A stretch of DNA of 64,000 nt from Castellaniella sp. (GTDB lineage: Bacteria > Pseudomonadota > Gammaproteobacteria > Burkholderiales > Burkholderiaceae_B), in the NCBI RefSeq assembly GCF_034675905.1, contig NZ_JAUCCV010000007.1:86677-150676 (forward strand), written 5' to 3'. The notes beneath the pieces were generated by a model. That model was not told where the DNA came from. It saw only the letters and a program-made list of their open reading frames with translations, and searched no databases. Numbering within the stretch: the stretch's first letter is position 1; every line of letters begins with the position of its first letter. The position numbers and the translations under genes are program-made. Positions 49,339-64,000 of the stretch are shown here, piece by piece.

Positions 49339-49628
49339 CTATAAAGGAGAAACCTATGTCACTAGAGGATTTGATCGATACAGATTCCCGGCCTGCCAGC
49401 AGGCTGCATGCAACCATGGAGTCCCGCCGCCGACTGGAATTGTGCAGCGAGCAGATGGCTGAAGGCGCCCGCCTTGTCATCGATGTTCTGGATGAACTCA
49501 TTGCAGAGCATGGAGACCTGCCGATTAGCGATACCCTGGCTGATCGGCTGATAGAGCGCATCGGGCTGCTCGACCGCGCCCAGGCGGCTTTATCGGACGC
49601 AATGCAGGGGAGGCATCGCCATGCTTGA
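49335..49628 (+). CDS. phage hypothetical protein
   Basis: 97 aa, overlaps both neighbours. Confidence 0.6.
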   Translation: MTIKEKPMSLEDLIDTDSRPASRLHATMESRRRLELCSEQMAEGARLVIDVLDELIAEHGDLPISDTLADRLIERIGLLDRAQAALSDAMQGRHRHA

Positions 49629-49854
49629 AACTGGCATTCTGCTGACCCGTGCACAGCTTGAGGAGCTAACGGGCATGAAACAGCCTGCGCGGATGGTGGC
49701 ATGGCTCGAGCAGCGGCATTGGGTGTACGAACCCGCCGCGCGTCGAGGCGGAATCCCCAGGGTATCGCGGCAGCATTTCGAGGCCCGTATGTCGGGCAAG
49801 TCGAACGCGCGGCGCCGTAACGGGCCACGGCTCGACTTCTTCGCAGCACAATGA
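49621..49854 (+). CDS. excisionase-like protein (DUF4224 type)
   Basis: LTRAQLEELTGMKQPARMVAWL...GGIPRVSR; ATGA-coupled to the integrase. Confidence 0.8.
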   Translation: MLETGILLTRAQLEELTGMKQPARMVAWLEQRHWVYEPAARRGGIPRVSRQHFEARMSGKSNARRRNGPRLDFFAAQ

Positions 49855-50957
49855 GCCGACAGCGCACCCGTCAGGATGGCCTGCCTTATCGTGTCTACGA
49901 GCGCAGGGGCACTATTACCTATTCAATCGGGTACAAGCTCCCTGATGGCCGGTGGGCGTTTCGCCTGAAGTGCCCCGTCAAGGATCGCGCCAAGATGGCA
50001 GAGATCCGTGCCGAGGCGATTCGTCGGGCAGGCGAGATCGGCTTGGGTCGACCGGCTGACGATTCCGTTGATGCGTTGATTACGGTGTGGCTGGAGTGGC
50101 AGGAATCTCTACCGCTTAACAGCCCGAAACGACGCGCTGACTCGACGCTGGCCGAGAACAAGCGCGAGATCGTCCGGCTGCGTAAGGCGTTCGGCCACAT
50201 GGCGGTGCGCGACCTCACGAAGACGGACGCCTACGCCTACCTGGATGCGTGCGTTAAGGCGAGCCGCGCCGCCAAGGGGAACAAGGAAATATCGCTGATG
50301 CGCCGCATTTTGGAATATGGCGTGCGCCTAGGCCTGCTAACAGTCAACTCGTTTGACGGTGTCGAGAAGAACGAAACCGCCGAGTATGACCGCCTGGTGA
50401 CCGATGAAGAAATTGCCCTGGCCGAACGCGTGGGCCGGAAGATGGGCGGCCCGCAGTTGATCGTGGCGCTGGCACTGAAAACAGCCTGGCTGTGCCTGAA
50501 ACGTTCCGTGGAGGTGCGAGCGTTGACACACCCACAAATCACCGATGCTGGCATTGAGTGGGTGGCGGCCAAACGGCGGCGGGGTGCCATTCCAAGGGTC
50601 GGGATTATCGAGTGGAGTCCAGAGCTGCGAGCGACGATTGATGATGCCCTGGCGATCAAGCGTTATGACCTCGCGGGCGACTGGTATGTGTTTGGAAATT
50701 TGCGCGGCGAGCGGTACACAAAAGGTGGCTGGAAGAGCACGCTATCGCGGCTCATGAACGAATGCGTGGAGGTGGCCACCAAGGAAAGCATCCCGTTTAA
50801 GCCATTCAGCCTGCAGGACTGCCGCCCTAAGGGTGTGTCAGACAAACTCCAGCGTGGGGACAAAGACGTCATGGAAGCGACGCTGCACACGTCGGAGCGG
50901 ATGATCCGCAAAACCTACGACAGGCGCCGTGTGCGCCATGCGAAGCCCGCAGAGTAG
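49851..50957 (+). CDS. int: tyrosine recombinase / phage integrase
   Basis: LCLKRSVEVR (catalytic R), LQDCRPKG (HxxR variant), LHTSERMIRKTYDRRR (catalytic Tyr); intact 368 aa. Confidence 0.9.
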   Translation: MSRQRTRQDGLPYRVYERRGTITYSIGYKLPDGRWAFRLKCPVKDRAKMAEIRAEAIRRAGEIGLGRPADDSVDALITVWLEWQESLPLNSPKRRADSTLAENKREIVRLRKAFGHMAVRDLTKTDAYAYLDACVKASRAAKGNKEISLMRRILEYGVRLGLLTVNSFDGVEKNETAEYDRLVTDEEIALAERVGRKMGGPQLIVALALKTAWLCLKRSVEVRALTHPQITDAGIEWVAAKRRRGAIPRVGIIEWSPELRATIDDALAIKRYDLAGDWYVFGNLRGERYTKGGWKSTLSRLMNECVEVATKESIPFKPFSLQDCRPKGVSDKLQRGDKDVMEATLHTSERMIRKTYDRRRVRHAKPAE

Positions 50958-50961
50958 GGAA

Positions 50962-51345
50962 TTATCCGTCGTGGCCCATGCCCACAATAAAGCCCGATAC
51001 GACTCTGTCGAGGGCTTTTTTCTCGGCTGTCGATAGCTTGCTGTACGACTCATAGGACGTCGAGAAAGGCCAGCCGTTCGCGCGGTTCTGGATGTGTGGC
51101 TGGTGGTTGTCCACCTCTCCCTCTTTCAGGTACTTCGGCCCTTCACCTGTCGCAATCCACCATGTGTGGACGCGAAAGAAGGCCGCTGCGCGGATGGCGT
51201 TTGAGGCCTCCATCTGCTTGGTCTTTCCGGACAGCCAGCCGTTCACGGACGGTTGCTTCACGCCGCAGGCGCGGGCGAGATCGACGGGCCTGGCCTCGGG
51301 GCGCTCGGCAAAGAGTTCAGAGAATCGTTCTGTAAGTGTGGACAT
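50962..51345 (-). CDS. CI-like XRE HTH repressor without an S24 peptidase domain
   Basis: VDLARACGVKQPSVNGWLSGKTK HTH; divergent from cro; 127 aa. Confidence 0.85.
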   Translation of the reverse strand: MSTLTERFSELFAERPEARPVDLARACGVKQPSVNGWLSGKTKQMEASNAIRAAAFFRVHTWWIATGEGPKYLKEGEVDNHQPHIQNRANGWPFSTSYESYSKLSTAEKKALDRVVSGFIVGMGHDG

Positions 51346-51346
51346 A

Positions 51347-51423
51347 TTAGCTAATCCTAAATGTTTTTCACATAGGTGTGGCTTGCTTTTTATCCTTAGG
51401 TATGGCTAAATATGCACTGCTAA
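51347..51423. promoter_or_regulatory. O_R/P_R operator-promoter region
   Basis: TTAG-N6-CTAA at 51347-51360 and 51396-51409; CCTTAG-nn-ATGGCTAA is shared (14/16) with 46781-46796. Confidence 0.8.
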
Positions 51424-51440
51424 GGATTTGGAGACCAACC

Positions 51441-51659
51441 ATGAAACGCATCGCCGAGCATCCGGATGCCGCTGTCATTGAACGCCTCGGGGGGACGTCA
51501 GCCGTCGCTCGCATGTGCAAGATCGAGGCCCCGTCTGTTACGAAGTGGAAGAAAACCGGGATACCCCAGGCACGCAGCATGTACCTGCGCGTACTGCACC
51601 CCGAGGCATTCCTGTCCGCTTCGCCCGACACGGCCAGCTCGCATCCAGCGGGGCAATGA
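51441..51659 (+). CDS. Cro-like (YdaS-type) HTH protein
   Basis: IERLGGTSAVARMCKIEAPSVTKWKKTGIP; RBS GGAG. Confidence 0.85.
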   Translation: MKRIAEHPDAAVIERLGGTSAVARMCKIEAPSVTKWKKTGIPQARSMYLRVLHPEAFLSASPDTASSHPAGQ

Positions 51660-51731
51660 TGATGAGCGCCCCATACTCCGCCCTTCCTTTTTCAATGTGG
51701 CCTCATTGTGCGACTTCGAAGGAGGACAGTC

Positions 51732-52300
51732 ATGCGTAGCATGTCGCAAACCACGATCACCATCCTGCGCGATGAGATTACCGAGTATCGGCGGGGCAAG
51801 CGCTTGTCGCGTGAGACTGTCGCCGCTGGCATCGTCGACGCGCACGAACGCCTGGGCGCCGACGTGGTGACAGGCATCCGCTTCGAGCCCAAGACGGTTG
51901 ATGCGTTCGAGCGCACCAAAGTGAACGCCGACCGAATCTTTCGATGGTTGGACGATGTCACCAAGGACGGCGTGTTTGTTGCCTGCGAACTTTCTGGTTT
52001 CTGTGCTGGCTGGTCTGCCCGAGGATGTTCGTCGTCGCGTTCTGGATCGGATGCTGCTGCCGCTCGGGTTCGCTGTCCGATCCCTTGGCGACAACCAGAG
52101 CGCTGCGGCCGTGTCTGCCAGCATGGTCGCCACGCTGGTCCGGGAGCAAAGCGAGGCAGCAGCAGCGACCACCAACCTGCTGGGAACCGCCGACCGCGCA
52201 GCCCTGCTAGACGCCAGACGCGAGATGGCCGAGGCCGTCGACGTCGGCGCAGAACCTGCTCGCGCATCTGGATGCGCAGATCTCGGAGGGCCAGGAACGC
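51732..52300 (+). pseudogene. CII-like (YdaT-type) regulator, frameshifted; end approximate
   Basis: MRSMSQTTITILRDEI...RIFRWLDDVTKDGV continues as LLPANFLVSVLAGLP only if one T of 51975-51977 is removed; follows cro. Confidence 0.6.
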
Positions 52301-52455
52301 ATGAAGCCAGCCCCGAAACCCGTACCGCGCCGCCCGCGCTCTGTGCAGCAACGCGCGGATCGCAAGGCGCAACAGACGCAATCACACAACCGCCCACCCG
52401 GGACCCATGCCGTCTGCCGTACGGCCGTCTGGTCGTCGGCCCAAGGGGGCGTCTG

Positions 52456-52647
52456 ATGGCGCACGAATTCGACCGCGCCAGCGAGCGCGAACAGGAGGCC
52501 CGCGACGCCGCGCTGGCCGCCACCCGCCGGGCCGCTGCGGCGATGCCGAAGGGTGAGCCGGGCGAGTGCGACCGCTGCGGCGAGTACTTCGTCCGCTTGG
52601 TCGGCGGCCTATGCGGCTTCTGCCGCGACGGTAGGTCGCGCCCATGA
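52456..52647 (+). CDS. TraR/DksA-like C4 zinc-finger protein
   Basis: MAHEFDRASEREQEARDAALAA...GECDRCGE...LCGFC. Confidence 0.75.
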   Translation: MAHEFDRASEREQEARDAALAATRRAAAAMPKGEPGECDRCGEYFVRLVGGLCGFCRDGRSRP

Positions 52648-52891
52648 TGCAGCCGGTTGCCCGCCTGCTTTTTTTCACGCCCGCGTTGAGTGGGGTAATC
52701 CCCGTTCCCCCAGGGAGAGCAGCAGGCCGCGTGGTTGCGTTGCGGGATGGGTTGCGCCTCGGTCGGCTCTGTTGCTTTTTTGCAACCAAGGTGGGGACCC
52801 TGGCGGATTCCTGGTCTTGCGGGGGCGCGCACCCGCGAAATATCGCTAGGCTGCGGGCCTGCAACATAGGCAACTGTCTGGGGGCCGCCGT

Positions 52892-55358
52892 ATGAGCTGG
52901 AAGAACTACGACGACGTGCTCTCCCAGCTTCGGGCCGCTGGCCTGGATGTCGATACGGAACGTTCGACGTCGGCACGTCGCGGCCTATTCGGTGCCGGGA
53001 GTACAACGGCGACCGCGAAAAGCGCGGCTGGTATTGGCTGAACGAGATCTGGCTCGACGAATACGACGACGCGGGCAAGCCCACAAAGGGCTGCTACATC
53101 GTCGGCAGCTACGGGGTCTATCGCGGTAAAGAGTCGGGCAAGCAGAAGATTCGGCTGTCGCGCAACGGCGCCACCATGAGCGCACAGCAGGCCGCTGCCA
53201 TGAAGGCCCGGCACGCCGAGAACGTGCGCCGCGCCAAGGCTATACGCGCCGCCGAGCAGGAGCGTGCCGCGCAGGCCGCCGCACGCGGCTGGGCCAAATA
53301 TCAGCCGGTGAGCGCCACGCCGTCCGAATACCTGGCCCGTAAGGGCGTGGGTGGCCACGGCGTGCGTTACTCGCCGTCGGGTAACGGCACCATCGCCATC
53401 CCGATCTGCGACGACACCGGCAAAGTCTGGGGCTTGCAGATCGTGCGAGGCCGCGACGGTGGTAAGCGCCTGGAAAAGCAGTACTGGCCCGCTGGCATGA
53501 ACAAGGCGGCGCACTACCACATGCTGGGCGCACCTGGCGCCGTGATTCTGCTGGCCGAGGGCTACGCCACCGCCGCGACGTTGTTCGAGGCGACCGGGTT
53601 GTGCGTCGTGGCGTTCGATGCCGATAATCTGATGCCGGTCGCCCAGGCGCTGCACAAGTCCTACCCCAAGGCGTACATCCTGGCGTGCGCCGATGACGAT
53701 TACCTCACAAAAGACCCCCACGGCAACCCGTGGAACCCCGGCGTCGAGGCCGCCCAGGCCGCGGCGACTGCCGTGCGCGGCGGATGGGTGGAGCCCGAGT
53801 TTCCCGGCGACCGCGAAGGCAAGAAGCTGACGGACTTTAACGACCTGCAGCACTTCCCTTTGGGTGGCCAGGCGTTGGTACGCGCCCAGATCGAGATGGC
53901 CCTTGCTGCTGCCGGGCATGATGCGGCAGCGGTCGGGCGGCCCGGCTTGCGGACTGGTGGCTTCGGCAGGCCGGGAACCCAGCCAGGGGGAAGGGGAAGG
54001 CGGAAAACGTCGCGCCGAAGCTGTCATGCCTCTGGATGATCTGGTGGAGCGCTTCGTGCCGGTTGATGATGGTACGGGCGACACGGTCTTTGATCTATGG
54101 ACGAACCGCATTGCGCGGCGGGCGCAGATGGTCGCGTTGCTGCCCGCTGGCGTACGCGCCGACGACATCAAGCGTCATCCGTTGTGGGTCGAGCGCGGCG
54201 CCTACTTCATCGATCAGATCGGCTTCGACCCGGCTGGCAAAGACGATGCGGTGGCACTCAACACCTGGCGCGGCTGGCCGATGGCCCCGCGCGACGGCTC
54301 ATGCCGCGAGCTGCTCGACCTGTTGCGCTACTTGTGCGAAGGCGAGAGCAATGCCGATGAGGTGTACGAGTGGATGTTGTGCTGGATGGCGTACCCGCTG
54401 CAGAACCCAGGCGCGAAGATGTCAAGCGCCATCATCATGCACGGCCCGCAGGGCACGGGCAAATCCACGATCTTTCAGACGCTGGCGAAAATCTACGGCG
54501 ATTACGCCACGGTGCTGAACCAGCGCGGCCTGGAGGATCGGTTCAACAGCGACTGGGTCGATAGCAAGCTGTTTCTGCTGGCCGAGGAAGTGGTAACCCG
54601 TGCGGAAATGTGGCATATCAAAAACGAGTTGAAAGAGCTTGTCACGGGCGAATGGATACGGGTGAACCCGAAGAACCTGGCCGCCTACCGTCAGCGCAAC
54701 CACGTCAACATCGTTTATCTGTCGAACGAGGGCCAGCCGCTGCCCATCGATAACGACGACCGCCGTCACCTGGTCATCTACACGCCACCCGCCCTGGCAG
54801 AGGACTTCTACGACGCGGTCAACATCGAGCTCGAGCACGGTGGGGTCGAGGCGTTCTACTACTTCCTGATGCACGTCGACCTGGCCGACTTCCATCCCAA
54901 AAGCGCCCGCCAATGACCGAGTCAAAGCAAAAGCTGATCGACCTATCGCTGCCCTCCGAGGCGGTGTTCGTGCGCGAGTGGCAGGCGGGCCAGCTTGAAA
55001 TCGACGAGGGCAAAGGTCCCATGCCGTTCTGCCCATGTCTGGGCGGGCACCTGTACACCACCTACAAGAAATGGTGCGCCCTGACGGGCGTCGTGCGGCC
55101 TCGCGATGAAACGCAGTTCATCGGATACGTGGGCCGCTTGCCCGAGTGGCAGGCTGGCAAGCCCGTGTCCACCCTGGAGAGCCTGAACAGCACAGCCTAT
55201 AAGAGCCGCAAGATGGTGATCCCCAGCCCTACCGCCGTCGCCGATGCACAGGCTGCGGGCGCGACGACCATTAGTGATGGCGACGGATCGAAAACAGGGG
55301 CCGTTGGCTGACTGAATGTTTTTTCGCGTTCAACAATGCGATGGGAGGCGGCCTGTGA
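52892..55358 (+). pseudogene. primase-helicase (Toprim plus SF3/D5-like ATPase plus C-terminal domain), about 4 frameshifts
   Basis: MSWKNYDDVLSQLRAAGL; Toprim LAEGYATA and ACADDD; Walker A GPQGTGKS; LAEEV; DRR. Pieces in ORFs 53176-54039, 53864-54916 and 54913-55311; one more A in the A4 run at 54899-54902 gives PKKRPPMT. Confidence 0.85.
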
Positions 55359-55368
55359 TAGTACGCCG

Positions 55369-55585
55369 TATTACGCCACTTATTACCGAAAAACACGCGG
55401 CAGGCGGGGATATGACTTGTATTACGCCTATGACCCCGTTCGCCCGCCCGCGTGACGTGAAAACATCTAACGTGCATGTTTACCCCTCACATGAGGCGCG
55501 TAACCCCGTCACAGGCGTAATACAAGTAATAGTCTCGCTTAAAAAGGTTCTAGGGGTAATAAAGTGAGTAATAAATGGGGTAATA
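55369..55585. repeat. convergent hexamer arrays, candidate phage replication origin
   Basis: TATTAC at 55369, 55381 and 55420, then its complement GTAATA at 55517, 55526, 55556, 55568 and 55580; AT-rich; directly after the primase. Confidence 0.65.
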
Positions 55586-55620
55586 AGGTTTGAGGCAGTC
55601 GATTTCGGTGGGGCTTCGTC

Positions 55621-56257
55621 ATGATCCTGGAATCGAAAGCCGCTTTCTCGTCGCCTGGGCGTCAATAAATCCACGATCACCCGCGCCGCACAGGCTGGTC
55701 GCCTGGTCATGCAGGGCGATCAGGTCAATGTCGAGGCCAGCCTGGCCCGCTGGCGCGCCGCAAAGGGGCCGCACCGATGTCGCGGAACGCTTCGCGGCGC
55801 AGCGCGGGCAGTCCATCCCCGACGTATCAACCCCTTACCCCCCCGAAGAAAACCCCACAGCGGGCGATTCTGGCCCGTTGCCGGAGCGGGGTTGCGGGCG
55901 GGTTGGTGCGCAACCTTTCACGCGACGGGCCGACACCGGCAGCGCCGGTCACTCCCCTGCAAACCGCGGCCTGACCCTCAGTTCGAGAACGAAACCATCA
56001 AGCTGGAGATGGCGCTGCGCCGTCACATGCGCTACCCCGCTGCCGTTCTCGTGCGGCGGGAAGCCTACGGCCTGGGCCTGGCCCTGCGGGCGTCCGTCGA
56101 GCGCATGGTGGTCAAACCGCGCCGCGCCTGGCCGCTGCCCCGACGCCAGAGCGCCGTGCGCTGCTGGTAGCTGAATGCGCCGCGCTGTCGCGTGCCATTG
56201 CCTACCGAGTTCGTCCGCGCCCTGCGCCGTCTGCGTGCCTCGGAGAAAAAATCATGA
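55621..56257 (+). pseudogene. terminase small subunit-like protein, several frameshifts
   Basis: Reconstructed MILESKAAF.RRLGVNKSTITRAAQAGRLVM...VNVEASLARW (HTH) and ENETIKLEMALRR...RALRRLRASEKKS. Confidence 0.6.
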
Positions 56258-56419
56258 TGATCCGCGAACTTTCGATTTTCCACCCTCCGGGCTTATAATG
56301 GCCGTGCGCTGGTAGACAACCGGCGCACGGGGTTCGCAGCCCGGAATACCAAGGCGCGCAGCCGCCTGGAAACCGTTCACGCGGCTTTTTCACTCTCTGC
56401 GCGCAGCATGGCACTCCTC

Positions 56420-56496
56420 TGGGCGGGCATGCGGGGGAGGGCTTCGGCCCTGCCGGTTCCTGGTTCCAGGTCTGCTAACCCGCATGTGTCCGCCCA
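56420..56496 (+). ncRNA. C4-type antisense RNA (P1 c4 / P4 CI-like cloverleaf)
   Basis: TGGGCGG/CCGCCCA and CATGCGGG/CCCGCATG stems, AGGGC-TTCG-GCCCT and CCTGG-tt-CCAGG hairpins, TGCTAACC tract; upstream near-complement GGGTTCGC at 56330-56337; TATAAT at 56294. Confidence 0.7.
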
Positions 56497-56582
56497 CCTC
56501 GTTTCAGGAGGCGGCGGCTCTCGACCGCGTCCAAGGAGTCACGCCATCAGCTGGTAAATCGTGGTGCGCACCCGCGCACGTC

Positions 56583-56847
56583 ATGCCACCCGGAAGCATC
56601 CCGGGCCACCACCACCCAAGAAACACCCATCTGCCTGGCCGATGCCAGCGGCTATTCGCTGTTCGCCGTGCGTGATGGCGTCCGCGCCGACACCGCGTTG
56701 GCGCAGGCGGCCAGCATGCTTCGCACTGCCCACGGCCTGCTGGTCAATTCCAGCGAGATGGGCGACGACGATCAGTACGCCGCCGGCCTGTTCCTGCTCG
56801 AGGGCGCCAGCGCCCTGATCGATTCCATCAACGGGGGCCAGCCATGA
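56583..56847 (+). CDS. DUF3077-like small protein (5' end frameshifted)
   Basis: LFAVRDGVRADTALAQAASMLRTAHGLL...GLFLLEGASALIDSI; stop overlaps the BRO start (ATGA). Confidence 0.5.
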
Positions 56848-57750
56848 ACAGCCTGGGATCCCCTTCGACTTCGACCAGCACTCCGTGCGTGCCGTGGCCG
56901 ACGAAGATGGCCGCGCCTGGTTTGTTGGCTCGGACGTCGCCGAAGCCCTGGGGTACGCGGAACCCGCGGCTATCCGGCAGCATTGCGAGGGGGGGCGAAA
57001 CACACCCCCTTCCGACCGCTGGCGGCATCCAGGACGTCCGCCTGATTTCCAGCCGGATCTGTACCGTCTGGTGGTGGGCAGTCGCCTCCGCCGCCGAGCG
57101 CTTCGAGCGCTGGGTGTGGACGTCCTGCCCACGATCCGGCGCACCGGCAGCTACTTCGCCCAGCCAGCCGCTGCCGACATGCGCGGCGTGAACACCGCCT
57201 TCTGGCTGATCCCCCACCTGCCGTACGGGCGGCACGCAGCCTGGGCCTGCAGCGTGAGGCCGCAATCGTCGCCGCCAATCGCACCGTCGCCAGCCTGACC
57301 GGCGTGGATGCCATGCAATTGCTGGACATCAAGGCACCCGCTGCCGCTGCGCTTCCAGGGGCCCGAGCAGAGGCCGAGTTCCTGCTTGCATGGCAGCAGG
57401 GCACTGTGGTGCTGGTCGATGACGCCGACCCGCTGCCCTTTGTGCCCTGCACCGGGCGGCAACTGCACGCGGCTTACCTGCATTGGTTCCGCCGCGAACA
57501 GCGCCCAGGCTGGCCGCAGGCTGAAACGCGGTTCGTGGGCTTCGTCGGCCGTCAGCCCGGCTGGGTGGCTGGCCGCCCGCAGCAGACCTACCGCGACCGC
57601 ACCGGCGCGAGGTGGCTGTCTCGCAAGATGGTTATTCCCGCCAACCTCATGTCGCCCATGAGCCAGACCCGCACGGAATGGCTCACCGAGGGCTATTTCA
57701 CCTTCCAGGCCGCGCTGGATGCGGCGCAATCCATCGGAGACCAAGAATGA
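56844..57750 (+). pseudogene. BRO-N antirepressor fused to a primase-C-terminal-like domain, multiple frameshifts
   Basis: Reconstructed PFDFDQHSVRAVADEDGRAWFVGSDVAEALGY...EPDLYRLV...AERFERWV..VLPTIRRTGSY. ARSLGLQREAAIVAANRTVASLTGVDAMQLL is in frame with ORF 57304-57750. Confidence 0.75.
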
Positions 57751-58123
57751 ACGGAACAGAAATCTCATACGCCCTGGCAAAGCAGTTGACCAGCGCTACC
57801 ACCATCGAGAGCAACTATGGCTCCATCGATCTGGACGCTGAACTGCGCCGCGCCGTCGACGCTGCTGTACGGCCCATTCTTGAGCGACGCATGGCCGCTT
57901 TTGAGCGAGGCAGCACCAATCCTGAAAACCTCATCGAGGGCATTCAGCGGCAATGCGCAGGGTACGCGAAGATGTGTTGCCGGAATATGACGCGATCCCT
58001 ACCGGCGCTTTCGCCGCGAGACTGATGCGCCAGTCGATCCGCGCCGCCGAAGCCGCCATCGCTTCCGGCGACGTCGTGGCGATGGTGTCCGCGTATGGCG
58101 ACCTGGAGGGCTATCAGGTATGA
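57747..58123 (+). CDS. phage hypothetical protein(s), frameshifted near 57960
   Basis: [12 protein letters not shown]... and a second frame [44 protein letters not shown]; ends in an ATGA overlap with ASCH. Confidence 0.5.
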
Positions 58124-58511
58124 AGACCCTGTCCGTTCGCCAGCCCTGGGCGTGGCTCATCGTCAACGGCTACAGCCCATCGAGAACCGTGACTGGCCTA
58201 CGCACCAGCGTGGCCCGATTCTGATCCACGCATCCAAGGGCATGACACGTGATGAGTACGGACGTTGCGGGATTAGCCCAATCTCTCGGCATCGCCATCC
58301 CAGCATTCGACGAGTTAGAGCGCGGCGGCATCGTTGGTCGAGCCGTGATCACCGGGTGTGTCACGGATCACGCATCCCCGTGGTTCTTTGGTAGGTATGG
58401 GTTTGTGCTGGCCGACGCCAGGCCTATGCCGTTTCAGCCGTTGCGCGGGCGGCTGGGTTCTTCGATGCTGCGTCTCCGGTTGAGCAATTGGCTACATCGC
58501 GTGGAGATTGA
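58120..58511 (+). pseudogene. ASCH domain protein, frameshifted
   Basis: [39 protein letters not shown]...[13 protein letters not shown]...[17 protein letters not shown]. Confidence 0.8.
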
Positions 58512-58515
58512 TGGC

Positions 58516-59025
58516 GTGTCTGATTCTGGAAAACGTGTGCTTGACCCGTGCTGCGGCAGCAGGATGTTCTGGTTCGACCGGCAGCACCCCGACGTCGTGT
58601 TCGGCGACCGCCGTCACGAAACCATCAGCGTCACGGACAGATCGCACGGCCGCGCCGATGGCGTGCGCACGCTGCGCATTGAGCCGGATGTACTGATGGA
58701 TTTCCGAGCGCTGCCGTACCCAGACGGCGCCTTCAGGCTCGTTTCCTTTGATCCCCCGCACCTGGTGCGCGCTGGCAAGAATTCCTGGCTGGCGGCGAAG
58801 TACGGAAAGCTCGGCCCAGACTGGCGCGAGGATCTGCGCCAGGGGTTTGCCGAGTGTTTCCGCGTGCTTGCCCCCGACGGCGTGCTGATTTTCAAGTGGA
58901 ACGAAACCCAAGTTAAGGTCGCGGACGTCCTGGCGTTGACCGCTGTGCCGCCGTTGTTCGGCCATCCGACTGGACACAAGGGGCTGACGCACTGGATCGT
59001 GTTCATGAAACCACGCGAGGCCGCC
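58516..59025 (+). CDS. phage class I SAM-dependent methyltransferase (reads through into the next gene)
   Basis: VLDPCCGSRMFWFD, DFRALPY, FDPPHL, FRVLAPDGVLIFKWNE, THWIVFMK. Confidence 0.8.
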
Positions 59026-60393
59026 ATGCAGATTGAAGTCCTGCCGCTCGACCGACTTGTCCCGTATGCCCGCAACAGTCGCACGCACAGCGATGCGCAG
59101 GTGGCCCAAATCGCCGCGTCGATACGGGAGTTCGGCTTCACCAACCCGGTACTGATCGATTCCGACGGCGGCGTCATCGCGGGCCACGGGCGCATCCTCG
59201 GCGCCGCGCGTCTGGGCATGACCGAGGTGCCGTGCTTGCGCTTGGGGCACCTGACCGAAGCCCAGAAACGTGCCTATGAGATCGCAGACAACAAGCTGGC
59301 GCTGAACGCTGGCTGGGATGAAGCGCTGCTGGCTGCGGAGCTGCGCGATCTGGCCGACATGGACTATGACATGGCCCTGACCGGCTTCGCCGATGATGAG
59401 ATCAAGGTGCTGCTGGCCGGGCTGGACGCCGCACCCACCGGCGCCACCGATCCGGATGCCGCGCCGCCTGTGCCCGATGTCCCGGTCAGCTTCCGGCCAG
59501 GCGACGTTTCGTTGCTGGGTCGCCACCGCGTCATGTGTGGCTCAAGCGCCGACCCCACCGCCTGGGCCAGGCTCATGCGCGATGATCGCGCGGATATTTG
59601 CGTCACAGATCCACCGTACAACGTGGCCTACGAGGGCAAGACCAAGGGTCGCATGACGATCCAGAACGACAGCATGTCGGCAGGCGGACTTCCGCCAGTT
59701 CCTGCTCGAGTTCTACCGGGCCGTGTTCGATGTGATGCAGCCTGGCGCCCCGATCTATGTCTATCACGCCGACACAGAGGGCCTGAACTTCCGCAGCGCT
59801 TTTATCGAAGCGGGCTTCAAGCTGTCCGGATGCCTCATCTGGCGCAAGAACACCATGGTGCTGGGCCGCTCCGACTATCAGTGGATACATGAGCCGATCC
59901 TGTACGGCTGGAAGCCCGGCGCCGCGCACCGCTGGTACGGCGGCCGCAAGCTCACCACGATCATCGAACACGGCGAGGGCGGCGCGGTACGCCGCTTGGA
60001 CGATGGCCGATGGGCCGTCCAGGCGGGCGATGACCTGCTGATCGTCGACGCGAACGCCACGCTTGAGGAACACCTGGGGTCGGTCATCTACCACGACAAG
60101 CCAGCCCGCAATGGTCAGCACCCGACGATGAAGCCTGTCAGCCTGATCGAGCGCAACCTGCGGGCATCCTCGCGTGCAGGCGACATCGTGATCGACGGCT
60201 TCGGCGGATCTGGCAGCACGCTCATGGCAGCGGATCGCCTCGGGCAGGCTGCTCGTCTGATGGAGTTGGATTGCGGCTACGTCGACGTGATCGTGCGCCG
60301 GTGGCAAGAGTACAGCGGGGGGGGGCATGTCTGGACGGGGATGGGGCTTCTTTCGACGAAATCATGGCGGCGCGTGCCGCCGCGACGGCGTGA
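59026..60393 (+). pseudogene. ParB/Srx N-terminal domain plus N6/N4 DNA methyltransferase, two frameshifts
   Basis: LVPYARNSRTHSDAQVAQIAASIREFGF, IADNKLALNAGWD, TDPPYNVAY, HPTMKPV, DGFGGSGST; shifts near 59690 and at the G9 run 60317-60325. Confidence 0.85.
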
Positions 60394-60403
60394 GGCTGCA
60401 CTG

Positions 60404-62554
60404 ATGGCGACCTTATCCGACCTGCAGACCGAGCGCGCAAAGCTGCGCGCCCTGGACGCAAAGTCGACCTATAAGTCGGCGCTGGCCGATACCACCAGCC
60501 ACAAGGATGTGGTGGCCGCTGCCGCCGCCATGCGTTCCGCCCTGGATGCCGCCATGCGAGGCATGCCTCGCGTGTTGGCAATGGCCATCGACGGTGAAGC
60601 CGACGAGACCCGCGTCCACTATCTGCTTTCGGATGCCATACATACGGCCCTCACAGGCATCGGCGCCGATGTCGAACATGCCTGCACGGTGCTGCCACCC
60701 GTTGGCGAACAGTTCAAGCGCGGCGCCCAGCCCCGCGATCTGCTGACCGTCAGCCAGTGGGCCGACCGCCATCGTTGGCTGCGCTCTGGAACGAATGCGC
60801 CAGGGCGCTGGAACACTGCACTGACTCCGTACCTGCGCGAGATCATGGATGCGCTCTCGGAGCACAGCCCCGTGCGAACCGTCGTGTTCCAGAAATCCTC
60901 GGGCGTCGGTGGTTCCGAGGTCATGATGAACTGGACTGGCTACGTGATGCATCATTTGCAGAATAAAGACATGCTGGTTGTCATGCCTACGCTGGAGTTG
61001 CGCGACCGGTCATTCAACCCGCGCATGGCAAAGATGGTGGAGGAGACCGAAGCACTGGCGGGACTGATCTCCCGCAATGCCCGCGACAAAACGAATCGCG
61101 CCGACGTTGTCGAGTACGGCGCCCACGCCCGCATCATCCGCAGTGGCGCCAACAGCCCCGATTCCCTGCGCTCCGATCACCTGCCTTATGTGATCTGCGA
61201 CGAGGTCAGCGCATTCCCCTGGGATGTCGGTGGCGAGGGCGACCCCATGACGCTGATCGAAAACCGGCAGCGCACATACAGCCGTGCGAAGTCGTATTTC
61301 ATCAGCACCCCCACCATTGCGGGCCGGTGTCGGATCAGCCTGCAGTACTCGCGCAGCGACCAGCGGCGCTATCACGTACCGTGCCCGAGCTGCGGCACGC
61401 TGCAGCACCTGGAGTTCGACCGCAGCGGCGTAGCCGACCACGGCCTGAAATGGCGCACCGCGCCGCCGGTCGATGCAGAAACCGGCGAAGTCCTGCGTCC
61501 GCGCGTACTGTCGGCTTGGTATGTCTGCAAAAACTGCCACGCCGAGATCCCTGAATCCAGCAAGACCGACATGCTGGCCCATGGAAAGTGGATCGCTGCG
61601 CGTCCCAGCGTCAAGCGCACGCGAGGCTATCACATCAATGCCCTGTATGCCCCGGTTGGCCTGGGCGTGTCGTGGCGTGACGTCGCGCAGAAGTGGCTGG
61701 ACTGCCAGGGCGATACCTCCGAGATGAAGGCGTTTGTCAATACATACCTGGGCGAGGCCTGGGCCGAGCAGGGCGACAGCATTGAGGATCTCTCGCTGAT
61801 ATCACGGCTGGAGGATTACGACCCCACCACGCTGCTGTTCCGTCTGATCACGGCGGGCGTTGACGTCCAGAAAAACCGCCTCGAAGTGAGCTATGTCGGC
61901 TGGGGCGAAAAAAGAGGAGGCCTGGCTGATCGATCATGTGATCCTGCCGGGAGATACGGCCCAGCCGGAAGTGTGGACGGCCCTGGGTGAGTCGCTAGTC
62001 GAACACAAGGTGCGCCAGGCCGTGGTCGACGCCGGGTACAACACCAGCATGGTTCACGCGTTTTGCGCACCGCGCCGCTGGGCAGCGCCGGGCAAAGGCA
62101 TTCCCGGCACCGCCCGCCCGCTGGTTGAAGACGAAAAGCGCCGGATCGCCCGCTTGCGTCGGCGAGTCAAGCATCAGCCAAACGCCGTCGAGCCGATTGG
62201 CGTCGACCAGGGCAAGGCCTTGATCTATGCACGCCTCAAGATGGAAAAGCCAGGCCCCGGCTACATTCATCTCCCGCGCGAGGCCTCGTTTGACGACGAA
62301 TACTTCGCACAGCTCAGGGGCAGAGAAACTTGTCACGAAGGTGCGGGGGCAGGCCAGGCCGTTTTCAGGTATGGGTGGAGATCCGTGCCCGTGATGAGGC
62401 TCTGGATTGCCTGGTTTACGCCACTGCCACTATGCGGCTGTTTCGCGTGGGTCTCGCCCTGCCACCTGCACCCCCCAGGCCCCAACAAAAAAGCCTGCCG
62501 CAGCGCCCGTCCGGCGCCGAACGCGCCGTCAGTCGCGCCCTGTCACCTCGATAA
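60404..62554 (+). pseudogene. terminase large subunit, lambda gpA family, two frameshifts
   Basis: LTVSQWADRHR, TPYLREIMD, QKSSGVGGSE, DEVSAFP, STPT, YHVPCPSCG, AGVDVQKNRLE; shifts at A6 61908-61913 and near 62315. Confidence 0.9.
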
Positions 62555-62575
62555 CCAGACCAGAAGGATACAACC

Positions 62576-63090
62576 ATGAACAACAAACTCGCCGCCAGTC
62601 AGAAAAACACAGTCTTGGACGATATCGCGGCCGAGATCGAGATGCGTGCCACCATCCTGCTCGCGGCCTGGTGGGGCGGCCGCAACATCGTTGTGCCCGA
62701 CACCCGGCCAGAGCACAGCGTCATTGCCAAGGTGATCGGCGAGGAAGCTGCTCGGCGGTTGAGCGCCGTGTGGCCCGGCGCCCAGATCTTCGTGCGCTGC
62801 GCCTGAACTGGTTTGAAGAGATCCGCAAGGCCCGCCAAGTCCACAACCTGCGCGCCCGTGGGCTGGGCTGGAACGAGATCGCCCAGGTCATGGTGATGAC
62901 CCGCCGCGAGGTCGAGGAGATGGGCGAAATCGGCCGATTTGCCACCGAAGCTATCGCACAGGAAAAGACCGGCCGCAGCGTGAACCCACTCTTTGAGCTG
63001 GAACGTCCACAGGTTCGTGGCGGCCGTGGCGGGCAGACCAAAAAAAGCGGTGTGCATGGTGCCAAAACCGCCCAGAAAACAGAGGCGTGA
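62576..63090 (+). pseudogene. Mor-like transcriptional activator, frameshift near 62795
   Basis: LDDIAAEIEMRATILLAAWWGGRNIVVP...VIGEEAARRL, continuing as LRLNWFEEIRKARQVHNLRARGLGWNEIAQ (HTH). Confidence 0.6.
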
Positions 63091-63091
63091 T

Positions 63092-63403
63092 ATGAATGCG
63101 AAATCTGGAGACATACTGACGACGGACGAGGTCAATGCGATCATCAAGGATTGCGAGGCCACCGTTGCTACCTACAACCAATTTGCACGCGACATTGAGG
63201 CGGCGGTTCTGGAGAAGCTGCGCAGCCACGATATCGAGGGCCTCATCGACCGGGCCTATCTCGAGTTCGACGCCATGCGCAGCGGCACAGGTGAATTCCG
63301 GGGGCAATCCTGGGATGAGTGCGATGCCTTCAAGGCACACATGCGCCGCTTCGCGTATGCCCGCTATCATGAACTGATCGGCCAGGTGCTGCGGGCGCAG
63401 TAA
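63092..63403 (+). CDS. phage hypothetical protein
   Basis: 103 aa, starts 2 bp after the previous stop. Confidence 0.6.
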   Translation: MNAKSGDILTTDEVNAIIKDCEATVATYNQFARDIEAAVLEKLRSHDIEGLIDRAYLEFDAMRSGTGEFRGQSWDECDAFKAHMRRFAYARYHELIGQVLRAQ

Positions 63404-63505
63404 GGGTAACGGCGGATAAACCATCCCCGCACGGCGGGATTTCAGCGTAATTTCATAAAATCCGTCAGGCTTCCTTGATAGGTAACATATAAAAGGAAGT
63501 GGATA

Positions 63506-63739
63506 ATGAATGTTTCAAACACCCGTGAAGTTTCGTTCCTGGGCTGCGGCCTGTCGGATCACCTGCTTGCCGTTCGGGCGGGCGTCCCTCGGGACATAGC
63601 TTTGCACTGCGCCGCCGATTTTTTGGTGACCACGCGCGACCTGCTGCTGGTAGCTGAAGAAATCGACAGTTCGGCGGTGCGTGCTGCCGCCATCCTGCTG
63701 GTCGAGGCGGCTGGAGCGGTTCTCAACGCCGCCGATTGA
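63506..63739 (+). CDS. DUF3077-like small protein
   Basis: LLAVRAGVPRDIALHCAADFL...AAAILLVEAAGAVLNA; RBS AAGGAAG; AT-rich upstream region. Confidence 0.55.
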   Translation: MNVSNTREVSFLGCGLSDHLLAVRAGVPRDIALHCAADFLVTTRDLLLVAEEIDSSAVRAAAILLVEAAGAVLNAAD

Positions 63740-63818
63740 TCGTCGGCATGTGATGCTATCATCGGTCGGTGAGTTTTTGTAACTTCTACCGACTGATGAT
63801 TAAAAAGGAAAACGCACG

Positions 63819-64000
63819 ATGACCATGGCGCTTGTAATCTTCCTGCTGACTTTTGCGTGCCTGGTGCTGTGGCTATTTGGCCTGGTCAAGCCGACGAAAG
63901 TATTTCTTGGCGCGGCCAGCACGCGCAGCAAGGTGACCAAGGTCTACGGCCTGGGGTTCGTTGCCTTGCTTTTCGCGTTCGTCATTGTCGCCGCATCCAG
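63819..64000 (+). CDS. membrane protein, partial (moron-like)
   Basis: MTMALVIFLLTFACLVLWLFGLVKP...VYGLGFVALLFAFVIVAAS; two TM helices; RBS AAGGA; extended -10 TGcTATCAT at 63754-63762. Confidence 0.65.
   Translation, partial: MTMALVIFLLTFACLVLWLFGLVKPTKVFLGAASTRSKVTKVYGLGFVALLFAFVIVAAS

Follow-up and report, generated by a model that had tools for sequence, protein, structure and literature searches.

A recurrent phage regulator family joins Bro-N, Rha or P22_AR_N heads to a paralogue of the winged helix of the phage's own primase-helicase

The C-terminal winged helix (WH) of P4 gp-alpha and of other D5-family members is an origin-binding domain (PMC4889955). For the homologous WH of mpox E5, which packs on the AAA+ subunit next to it, no role at an origin was seen (PMC12137749). 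Here we analyse a 64,000-nucleotide stretch of Castellaniella sp. (NCBI RefSeq assembly GCF_034675905.1, contig NZ_JAUCCV010000007.1; the whole stretch is hereinafter designated the window). It contains a prophage with a P4-alpha-like primase-helicase and, farther downstream, a gene that joins a Bro-N head to a second copy of the primase WH. The latter is designated the fusion gene, and its product BRO-WH.

The locus resembles P4 in its overall plan. Like P4 gp-alpha, the window primase combines an EGYATA Toprim primase, a D5-type SF3 helicase and a C-terminal WH, with iterons adjoining the gene, and its predicted layout is that of the gp-alpha architecture. However, the solved structure of the P4 origin-binding domain has no detectable sequence or Foldseek match to the window domain, and TIGR01613 matches the window primase in part (38.9 bits, cut-off 108.7). 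The logic proposed for P4 Cnr is similar, with replication modulated by a second protein that is related to the origin-binding WH, but Cnr is a small free protein, whereas the second WH here is clearly paralogous and is joined to a Bro-N, Rha or P22_AR_N head. With regulators of the Bro-N, Rha and P22 Ant (KilA-N-like) kind, the fusion gene shares the head (PF02498, or PF09669 or PF10547 in sister fusions) and the plan of a head followed by an exchangeable C-terminal module. Domain shuffling of Bro-N, Rha and KilA-N proteins was reportedly described by Iyer, Koonin and Aravind in 2002. Unlike in the usual proteins of this kind, the C-terminal module here is the putative origin-reading WH of the primase, and no Pfam, NCBIfam or PHROG model covers it. 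In ICP1 Odn (Gp88), the origin-binding domain of RepA from the parasite PLE is fused to a T5orf172 nuclease (PMC8263062). As in the present case, an initiator's origin-binding domain is re-used with a different partner, giving origin-directed specificity (PMC8263062). However, Odn targets and cleaves a hostile element, whereas donor and recipient are here in the same phage, the partner is a regulatory head and the paralogy is old. The WH of poxvirus D5 and mpox E5 likewise follows a D5-type SF3 helicase, and two members of the present family match Pox_D5 weakly; in contrast to mpox E5, wing residues covary with iterons here.

The features of the window on which the analysis turns are given below.

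52892 to 55358, plus strand: P4-alpha-like primase-helicase, with EGYATA Toprim primase, D5-like SF3 helicase (DUF5906) and C-terminal winged helix.
54913 to 55358, plus strand: C-terminal winged helix of the primase, a putative origin-binding domain by homology and by wing-iteron covariation.
55366 to 55590, no strand assigned: putative origin, with sets of iterons G(G/C)GTAATA(A/C) round a spacer.
56844 to 57140, plus strand: Bro-N domain (PF02498) of the fusion gene, spread over frames 0 and 2 by seven insertion or deletion (indel) events.
57173 to 57300, plus strand: two-helix hairpin linking Bro-N to the winged helix, where a +2 indel at 57211 shifts frame 2 to frame 1.
57304 to 57750, plus strand: intact open reading frame (ORF) of 148 residues with a GTG start, containing the winged helix (about 57367 to 57723), a paralogue of the primase tail.

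A preliminary description of this locus had noticed a resemblance between the BRO tail (57304–57750) and the primase tail (54913–55358), and this is borne out by BLASTP, in which the two are 32% identical across about 150 residues (78 bits, E = 9e-24). The domain occurs in just two copies in the window's own genome, namely the BRO tail and the primase tail. The same description took the reading frame to be continuous from the BRO linker into the domain. The linker ARSLGLQREAAIVAANRTVASLTGVD and the WH do share one open frame, but the gene is not continuous from its ATG, and 56844–57750 is not a single ORF in the window (translation table 11). Specifically, the frame from the ATG terminates at 57191, a second frame (56885–57298) holds further Bro-N pieces, and the third is the ORF at 57304–57750, for which the deposited annotation gives an ATG start at 57313 and a 145-residue product, P0044. 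The Bro-N half alternates between frames 0 and 2 and then enters frame 1; in the stitched sequence it matches PF02498 with E = 6.5e-18 (65.6 bits, cut-off 25.6). The window's copy of the fusion gene is either mis-assembled or dead. In both cases, the biology has to be read from intact relatives.

The fusion is real in the family, although the window copy is not intact as assembled, because single-ORF versions exist in two genomes of the same genus (G019, 304 residues; G007, 302 residues) and in P0005 (297 residues). Relatives in Castellaniella and other Alcaligenaceae have one intact ORF of 297–305 residues. A search for Bro-N with this tail in other phages, proposed in the preliminary description, found it as single ORFs in relatives: 13 such proteins were recovered from 5.8 billion, from Castellaniella, Eoetvoesiella and metagenomes, and PF02498 is present in the intact homologues P0001–P0013. 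P0005, from a Castellaniella metagenome-assembled genome (contig L013), is nearly identical to the window gene, indels aside. L013 holds an intact prophage with the same gene order as the window: int, cI/cro, a YdaT-like gene, an 823-residue primase, iterons, a 211-residue helix-turn-helix (HTH) protein, a DUF3077 gene, BRO-WH, ASCH, ParB-methylase, GpA terminase and a Mor-like gene. A homology search with the linker returned the same family alone, and a family-wide genome search gave no additional full-length members.

Sister fusions extend the family to other heads, as listed here.

Bro-N head fusions: P0050, P0053, P0099 and P0104.
Phage_pRha head fusions (PF09669): P0056, P0068, P0095, P0116 and P0119.
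P22_AR_N head fusions (PF10547): P0059 and P0146.

In the model of BRO-WH, residues 1–104 match Bro-N proteins in BFVD, and two helices (114–135 and 140–155) form the hairpin. This hairpin precedes the WH in all fusions, with the consensus ADR.FR..R..R..GL....A...AN......TG.D.L, and is common to the Bro-N, Rha and P22_AR_N proteins. It is also the most constrained part of the protein, with a ratio of nonsynonymous to synonymous substitution rates (dN/dS) of 0.02–0.25; the ratio is below 0.7 for all three parts, indicating purifying selection. In the tree of the domain, fusion-type copies are scattered among the primase copies in three or more places, perhaps as many as eight, and one clade contains all three heads. 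All 15 fusion genes found (13 plus L109 and L131, from loci drawn from genomes, IMG/VR and assemblies) lie 1–7 kb downstream of, and on the same strand as, a domain-bearing primase, and a fusion gene follows 10 of the 38 primases that have at least 6 kb of downstream sequence. The WH fills the slot of an exchangeable target module, because a BRO protein with the same head and hairpin has another tail: the minus-strand ORF 1417–2256 of L121 (G184:C18) is 55% identical over residues 3–161 and continues with ...YTPTELGKML..SARKVNLLLAEAGLQ... instead. The preliminary description knew of no described example, and our literature searches likewise turned up no account of Bro-N linked to a primase WH. 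However, the architecture is not a singular case. It is a recurrent family of domain-shuffled Bro/Rha/Ant regulators with Bro-N, Rha and P22_AR_N heads, and related ideas are known from P4 Cnr, proposed to act on the alpha origin-binding domain, and from ICP1 Odn.

The shared domain is confidently modelled as a winged helix. The AlphaFold2 model based on a 25-sequence alignment has a pLDDT of 87 and a pTM of 0.79, and its elements follow the order α1-β1-α2-α3-β2-β3 plus a long C-terminal helix. In BFVD, the model matches a phage helicase best (E = 8e-4); many D5/NrS-1-type primase-helicases come next, with E-values that are not significant. A profile search of the PDB with the tail gave no sequence match, tblastn of the tail against 50,697 phage records gave none either, and Pox_D5 (PF03288) matches neither window copy. 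A profile search of 1.84 billion representative proteins returned 241 matches in four groups, namely Toprim + DUF5906 primases of about 800 residues with the domain at the very C-terminus, fusions of about 300–355 residues, short ORFs and fragments. The short ORFs begin exactly at the methionine of a conserved PPMT. Many WH-alone proteins of 130–155 residues (P0046, P0057, P0063, P0064, P0074, P0077, P0081, P0085, P0092, P0098, P0103 and P0143) start exactly at the Met of the conserved PPMT(E/S)(A/S)K found ahead of the domain in full-length primases. Split genes, frameshift products or an internal start that frees the origin-binding domain could account for them.

In the window, the primase copy of the WH sits directly after the D5-type SF3 helicase domain, and the BRO copy is a paralogue outside that context. 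The primase matches DUF5906 with E = 3.9e-23 and retains the EGYATA and GPQGTGKS motifs. It is interrupted by frameshifts at 52963, 53951, 54901 and 55297; the last, a −1 indel, shifts the final 20 codons and severs WLTECFFAF from the primase tail. Intact orthologues have 824 residues in G019 and 823 in L013. Primases of L015 (P0029) and L017 have inserted CxxC...CxxC zinc-ribbon-like segments in the Toprim region (alignment columns about 95–115 and 330–350), which the window primase lacks. In L112 (2818–5004), a related phage, two Phage_pRha genes encoding 430 and 288 residues abut the primase upstream, a further case of regulators beside a primase; neither has a winged-helix tail.

The iterons were surveyed in the 300–400 bp after the primase stop codon in L011, L013, L015, L017, L022–L027, L031–L114 and L131, and in 55366–55590 of the window. 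Behind every primase examined, within a few bases of the stop codon, are two inverted iteron sets that flank a spacer, and the iterons have a common G(G/C)CGT-type core and differ after GT. The window has three minus-strand copies at 55366–55428 and five plus-strand copies at 55513–55586, the latter spaced partly at 12 bp. Seven of the window's ten GTAATAM sites fall in the putative origin; the chance expectation over the whole window is about one. The origin stops about 30 bp short of the ATG of the next gene (55621) and is located immediately upstream of the operon containing the fusion gene, about 1.3 kb upstream of the latter. In the G019 prophage (48 kb), in L017 and in the prophage part of the window, the iteron motif is confined to the origin, and no further iteron cluster occurs near the BRO gene or elsewhere in the prophage.

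Which residues of the domain could read these iterons was asked by comparing columns. Whole-domain identity was rejected as a predictor of iteron type: the tails of G019 and P0018 are about 80–86% identical and have different iterons, and the L017 tail is about 36% identical and yet has the same iteron core. Among 20 closely related primases, just one of the final 175 columns of the alignment sets the iteron classes apart, namely the residue preceding the invariant RKM of R-K-M-V-I-P on strand β3 (the pre-RK residue). This residue is Ser in all eight primases with GTAA(T/C)A and Asn in all twelve with GTGAGA, GTGCTA, GTAGGA or GTGACA; the association spans at least three domain backgrounds (uncorrected Fisher p = 8e-6). 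The residue at the start of β2 also covaries, with Ala accompanying GTGAGA (6/6) and Thr accompanying GTGCTA (4/4). Specifically, L031 and L032 have near-identical domains and differ by Ala to Thr at β2 alongside GTGAGA to GTGCTA. In a wider set of 63 non-redundant primase-origin pairs, compared by Fisher tests without phylogenetic correction, β2 Pro goes with GTA in 19 of 19 pairs and β2 Ser with GTGG in 16 of 16, and pre-RK Asn is found with GTAA in none of 34. By hairpin register, the two covarying positions flank the invariant Arg-Lys, and it is plausible that they form a DNA-reading surface. Because wing residues covary with the iterons behind every primase, the C-terminal WH of the primase is very probably an origin-binding module, as the preliminary description had supposed.

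BRO copies retain the invariant T, R-K-M-V-I-P and W-AG of the wing. The β2 residue is Pro in both the BRO and the primase copy of the window/L013, G019, G007, L021 and L109, five GTAA-type phages, and Ala in both copies of L020+L022, L023, L032, L033 and L131, six GTGAGA-type phages. The match in L131 was predicted before it was looked up and was then confirmed. Mismatches occur in L031 (S in BRO, T in the primase) and L017 (S and P, respectively). The earlier suggestion that the BRO protein could bind the nearby iterons accords with the invariant wing and with β2, which tracks the cognate primase in most cases, and not with the pre-RK residue, which does not track it; such binding is plausible. 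If the specificity is shared, the origin would be the sole target, because the iteron motif occurs only there. The description of the tail as a duplicate of the primase domain does not hold in the sense of a recent event. BRO and primase copies within one phage are 33–47% identical, and the BRO tail must be an old paralogue because the cognate primase tail is usually not its closest relative; recent duplication and concerted evolution were both rejected on the same ground. The name antirepressor is likewise no more than a label that comes with Bro-N, with no sign of repressor binding: no ANT/KilAC or P22_AR_C domains were found, and the PHROG labels cover the Bro-N head alone.

The model that fits best, to which we give an even chance, is that BRO-WH is a regulator tethered to the origin iterons. 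In this model, intact relatives encode a three-part phage regulator consisting of a Bro-N head, a two-helix hairpin and a WH, the last being an old paralogue of the C-terminal domain of the phage's own P4-alpha-like primase-helicase. The primase WH would read the origin iterons just behind the primase gene through its β-hairpin wing, on which the invariant Thr and Arg-Lys are flanked by two variable residues. Because this invariant wing is kept, BRO-WH would most likely be brought to the same iterons, about 1.3 kb upstream of its own gene. At the origin, it would modulate the loading of the primase-helicase, the transcription leaving the origin, or both. Homology, fold, recurrence and synteny of the fusion, purifying selection and wing-iteron covariation are observed; DNA binding by either copy, their shared target and the regulatory outcome are what we infer.

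Several observations weigh against origin tethering. A Foldseek search of the PDB gave nothing significant, with weak matches to the WH domains of ORC, Cdc6 and Cdt1, and Pox_D5 reaches sub-threshold scores in two relatives (E about 2e-3, 18.7–19.1 bits, cut-off 21.4). The homologous WH in mpox E5 lacks an observed origin role (PMC12137749). A sigma-70-like promoter was sought in the origin region and none was found. The pre-RK residue of BRO copies does not follow the cognate primase, being S, A or T in GTAA phages and T, N, P or G in GTGAGA phages. The cognate primase tail ranks between 2 and 64 of 87 in closeness to the BRO tail, and two fusion lineages (L052/53/55 and L090) have degenerate wings. 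In addition, part of the wing-iteron covariation may be co-inheritance, as the origin and the domain-coding DNA are adjacent. Function is nevertheless favoured over co-inheritance because the single discriminating column recurs on several backgrounds.

Alternatively, the BRO WH may act through protein contacts and not on DNA, tuning or blocking helicase loading either by docking on the primase-helicase hexamer at the docking site of the primase WH or by forming a heterodimer with the primase WH, as proposed for Cnr. The mpox E5 WH is packed on a neighbouring subunit and has no observed origin role (PMC12137749), and Yeo et al. 2002 (cited in PMC4889955 and PMC12137749) name regulation by WH homo- and heterodimerisation in their title. 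Fusion and primase are syntenic in every case, many invariant residues are common to phages with different iterons, and the pre-RK residue of the BRO copies is independent of iteron type. However, docking hardly explains why the primase wing covaries with the iterons or why the β2 residue of the BRO copy follows the iteron type, and phages with widely differing BRO tails have helicase cores that are 90% identical or more. We consider action through protein contacts unlikely, though far from negligible. The likeness to the primase could also be purely historical, with an ordinary Bro-N 'antirepressor-like' protein using an interchangeable tail for dimerisation or for unrelated DNA, and with no tie to replication. 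The domain shuffling of Bro-N, Rha and KilA-N proteins, the different tail of the sister BRO protein with the same hairpin, the age of the paralogues (33–47% identity) and the confinement of the PHROG labels to the head would all suit such a protein. It is nonetheless improbable, as all 15 fusion genes co-occur with a domain-bearing primase, the domain joined or left the fusion class at least three times, the β2 residue tracks the cognate iteron class, and the invariant wing residues are kept under purifying selection. Most improbable of all is a weapon or exclusion factor that attacks competing phages or satellites at their origins or primases, following the logic of ICP1 Odn. Odn sets the precedent of an origin-binding domain refitted to another effector domain (PMC8263062), and the BRO tail is often nearer to a foreign primase tail than to its own. 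On the other hand, the protein has no nuclease or other effector domain, its β2 residue fits its own iteron class and not a foreign one, and its gene lies within the phage's own early/middle operon in conserved synteny.

A separate question is the state of the window copy. Compared with L013, window positions 49344–64000 are 96.6% identical, with 417 substitutions and 66 indels. Between 53.5 and 62 kb, the identity is about 99%, with 49 indels against about 70 substitutions (about 0.7 indels per substitution). These indels are 1–4 nt each, insertions equal deletions in number, and they are tightly clustered, as in the five indels within 24 bp at 55957–55980. Because of this ratio, symmetry and clustering, they resemble patches of poor consensus and not natural decay. 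Their distribution against L013 is patchy, with 26 in 55.6–56.65 kb and none in 60.3–61.9 kb, and substitutions climb in the same patches. In the fusion gene, indels were called against L013, the nearest intact relative, which is about 99% identical there. They are +2 at 56855, −2/−1 at 56967-8, −1 at 56996, −1 at 57005, −1 at 57051, −2 at 57088, −4 at 57118 and +2 at 57211, that is, eight frame-breaking events (nine gaps), all in the Bro-N half; no indels are found within 57212–57753.

We think it fairly probable that the indels of the window are assembly errors. That the frameshifts are real, and the fusion gene dead in a decaying prophage, is a doubtful but serious possibility that concerns the window copy alone; in that case, at most a free-standing WH protein of 145–148 residues may be produced. 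Real decay would fit the restriction of frameshifts to the prophage, as about 46 kb of host DNA has just one. It would also fit the sparing of the int-cI-cro block (49344–51700), which has one indel, intergenic, against 12 expected (P = 5e-5), a pattern expected of a decaying domesticated prophage, as well as the position of all nine gaps of the BRO gene in its first 368 nt, leaving the WH ORF intact (naive p = 3e-4). It is hard to reconcile with 49 symmetric, short and clustered indels against about 70 substitutions at about 99% identity to L013, with the location of the prophage at a contig end (the final 18.6 kb of contig C7), and with the finding that, among cluster members, the truncated protein occurs in this one assembly. 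Two further features were seen in the neighbourhood. A DNA methylase gene of about 2 kb in L013 (its positions 484–2496) is missing from the window. The first gene after the origin, at 55621–56260, encodes a homologue of the 211-residue HTH protein (MTLESKAAFARRLGVNKSTITRAAQAGRL...), probably a small terminase or a regulator, and is more heavily frameshifted than any other stretch of the prophage.

Bro-N, Rha and Ant-type proteins are very common phage genes whose function is poorly understood, and their C-terminal modules are thought to set their targets. For one group of them, the tail leads back to a domain whose DNA target is predictable, namely the origin iterons about 1 kb away, which makes for a hypothesis that can be tested at the bench. 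The covariation between wing and iteron provides a starting code for the prediction of origin specificity in the widespread P4-alpha-like primase-helicases of prophages and satellites of beta- and gammaproteobacteria, and it bears on the question of whether the D5-type WH is an origin binder. Tentatively, and with a little less confidence than for the tethering itself, the Bro-N, Rha and P22_AR_N proteins with this tail may constitute an undescribed class of origin-tethered regulators, which would read, through a paralogous wing, the iterons that the phage's primase-helicase reads, by a simple and partly decodable correspondence of residue to base, and couple the lytic regulatory circuit to origin firing or to the transcription leaving the origin.

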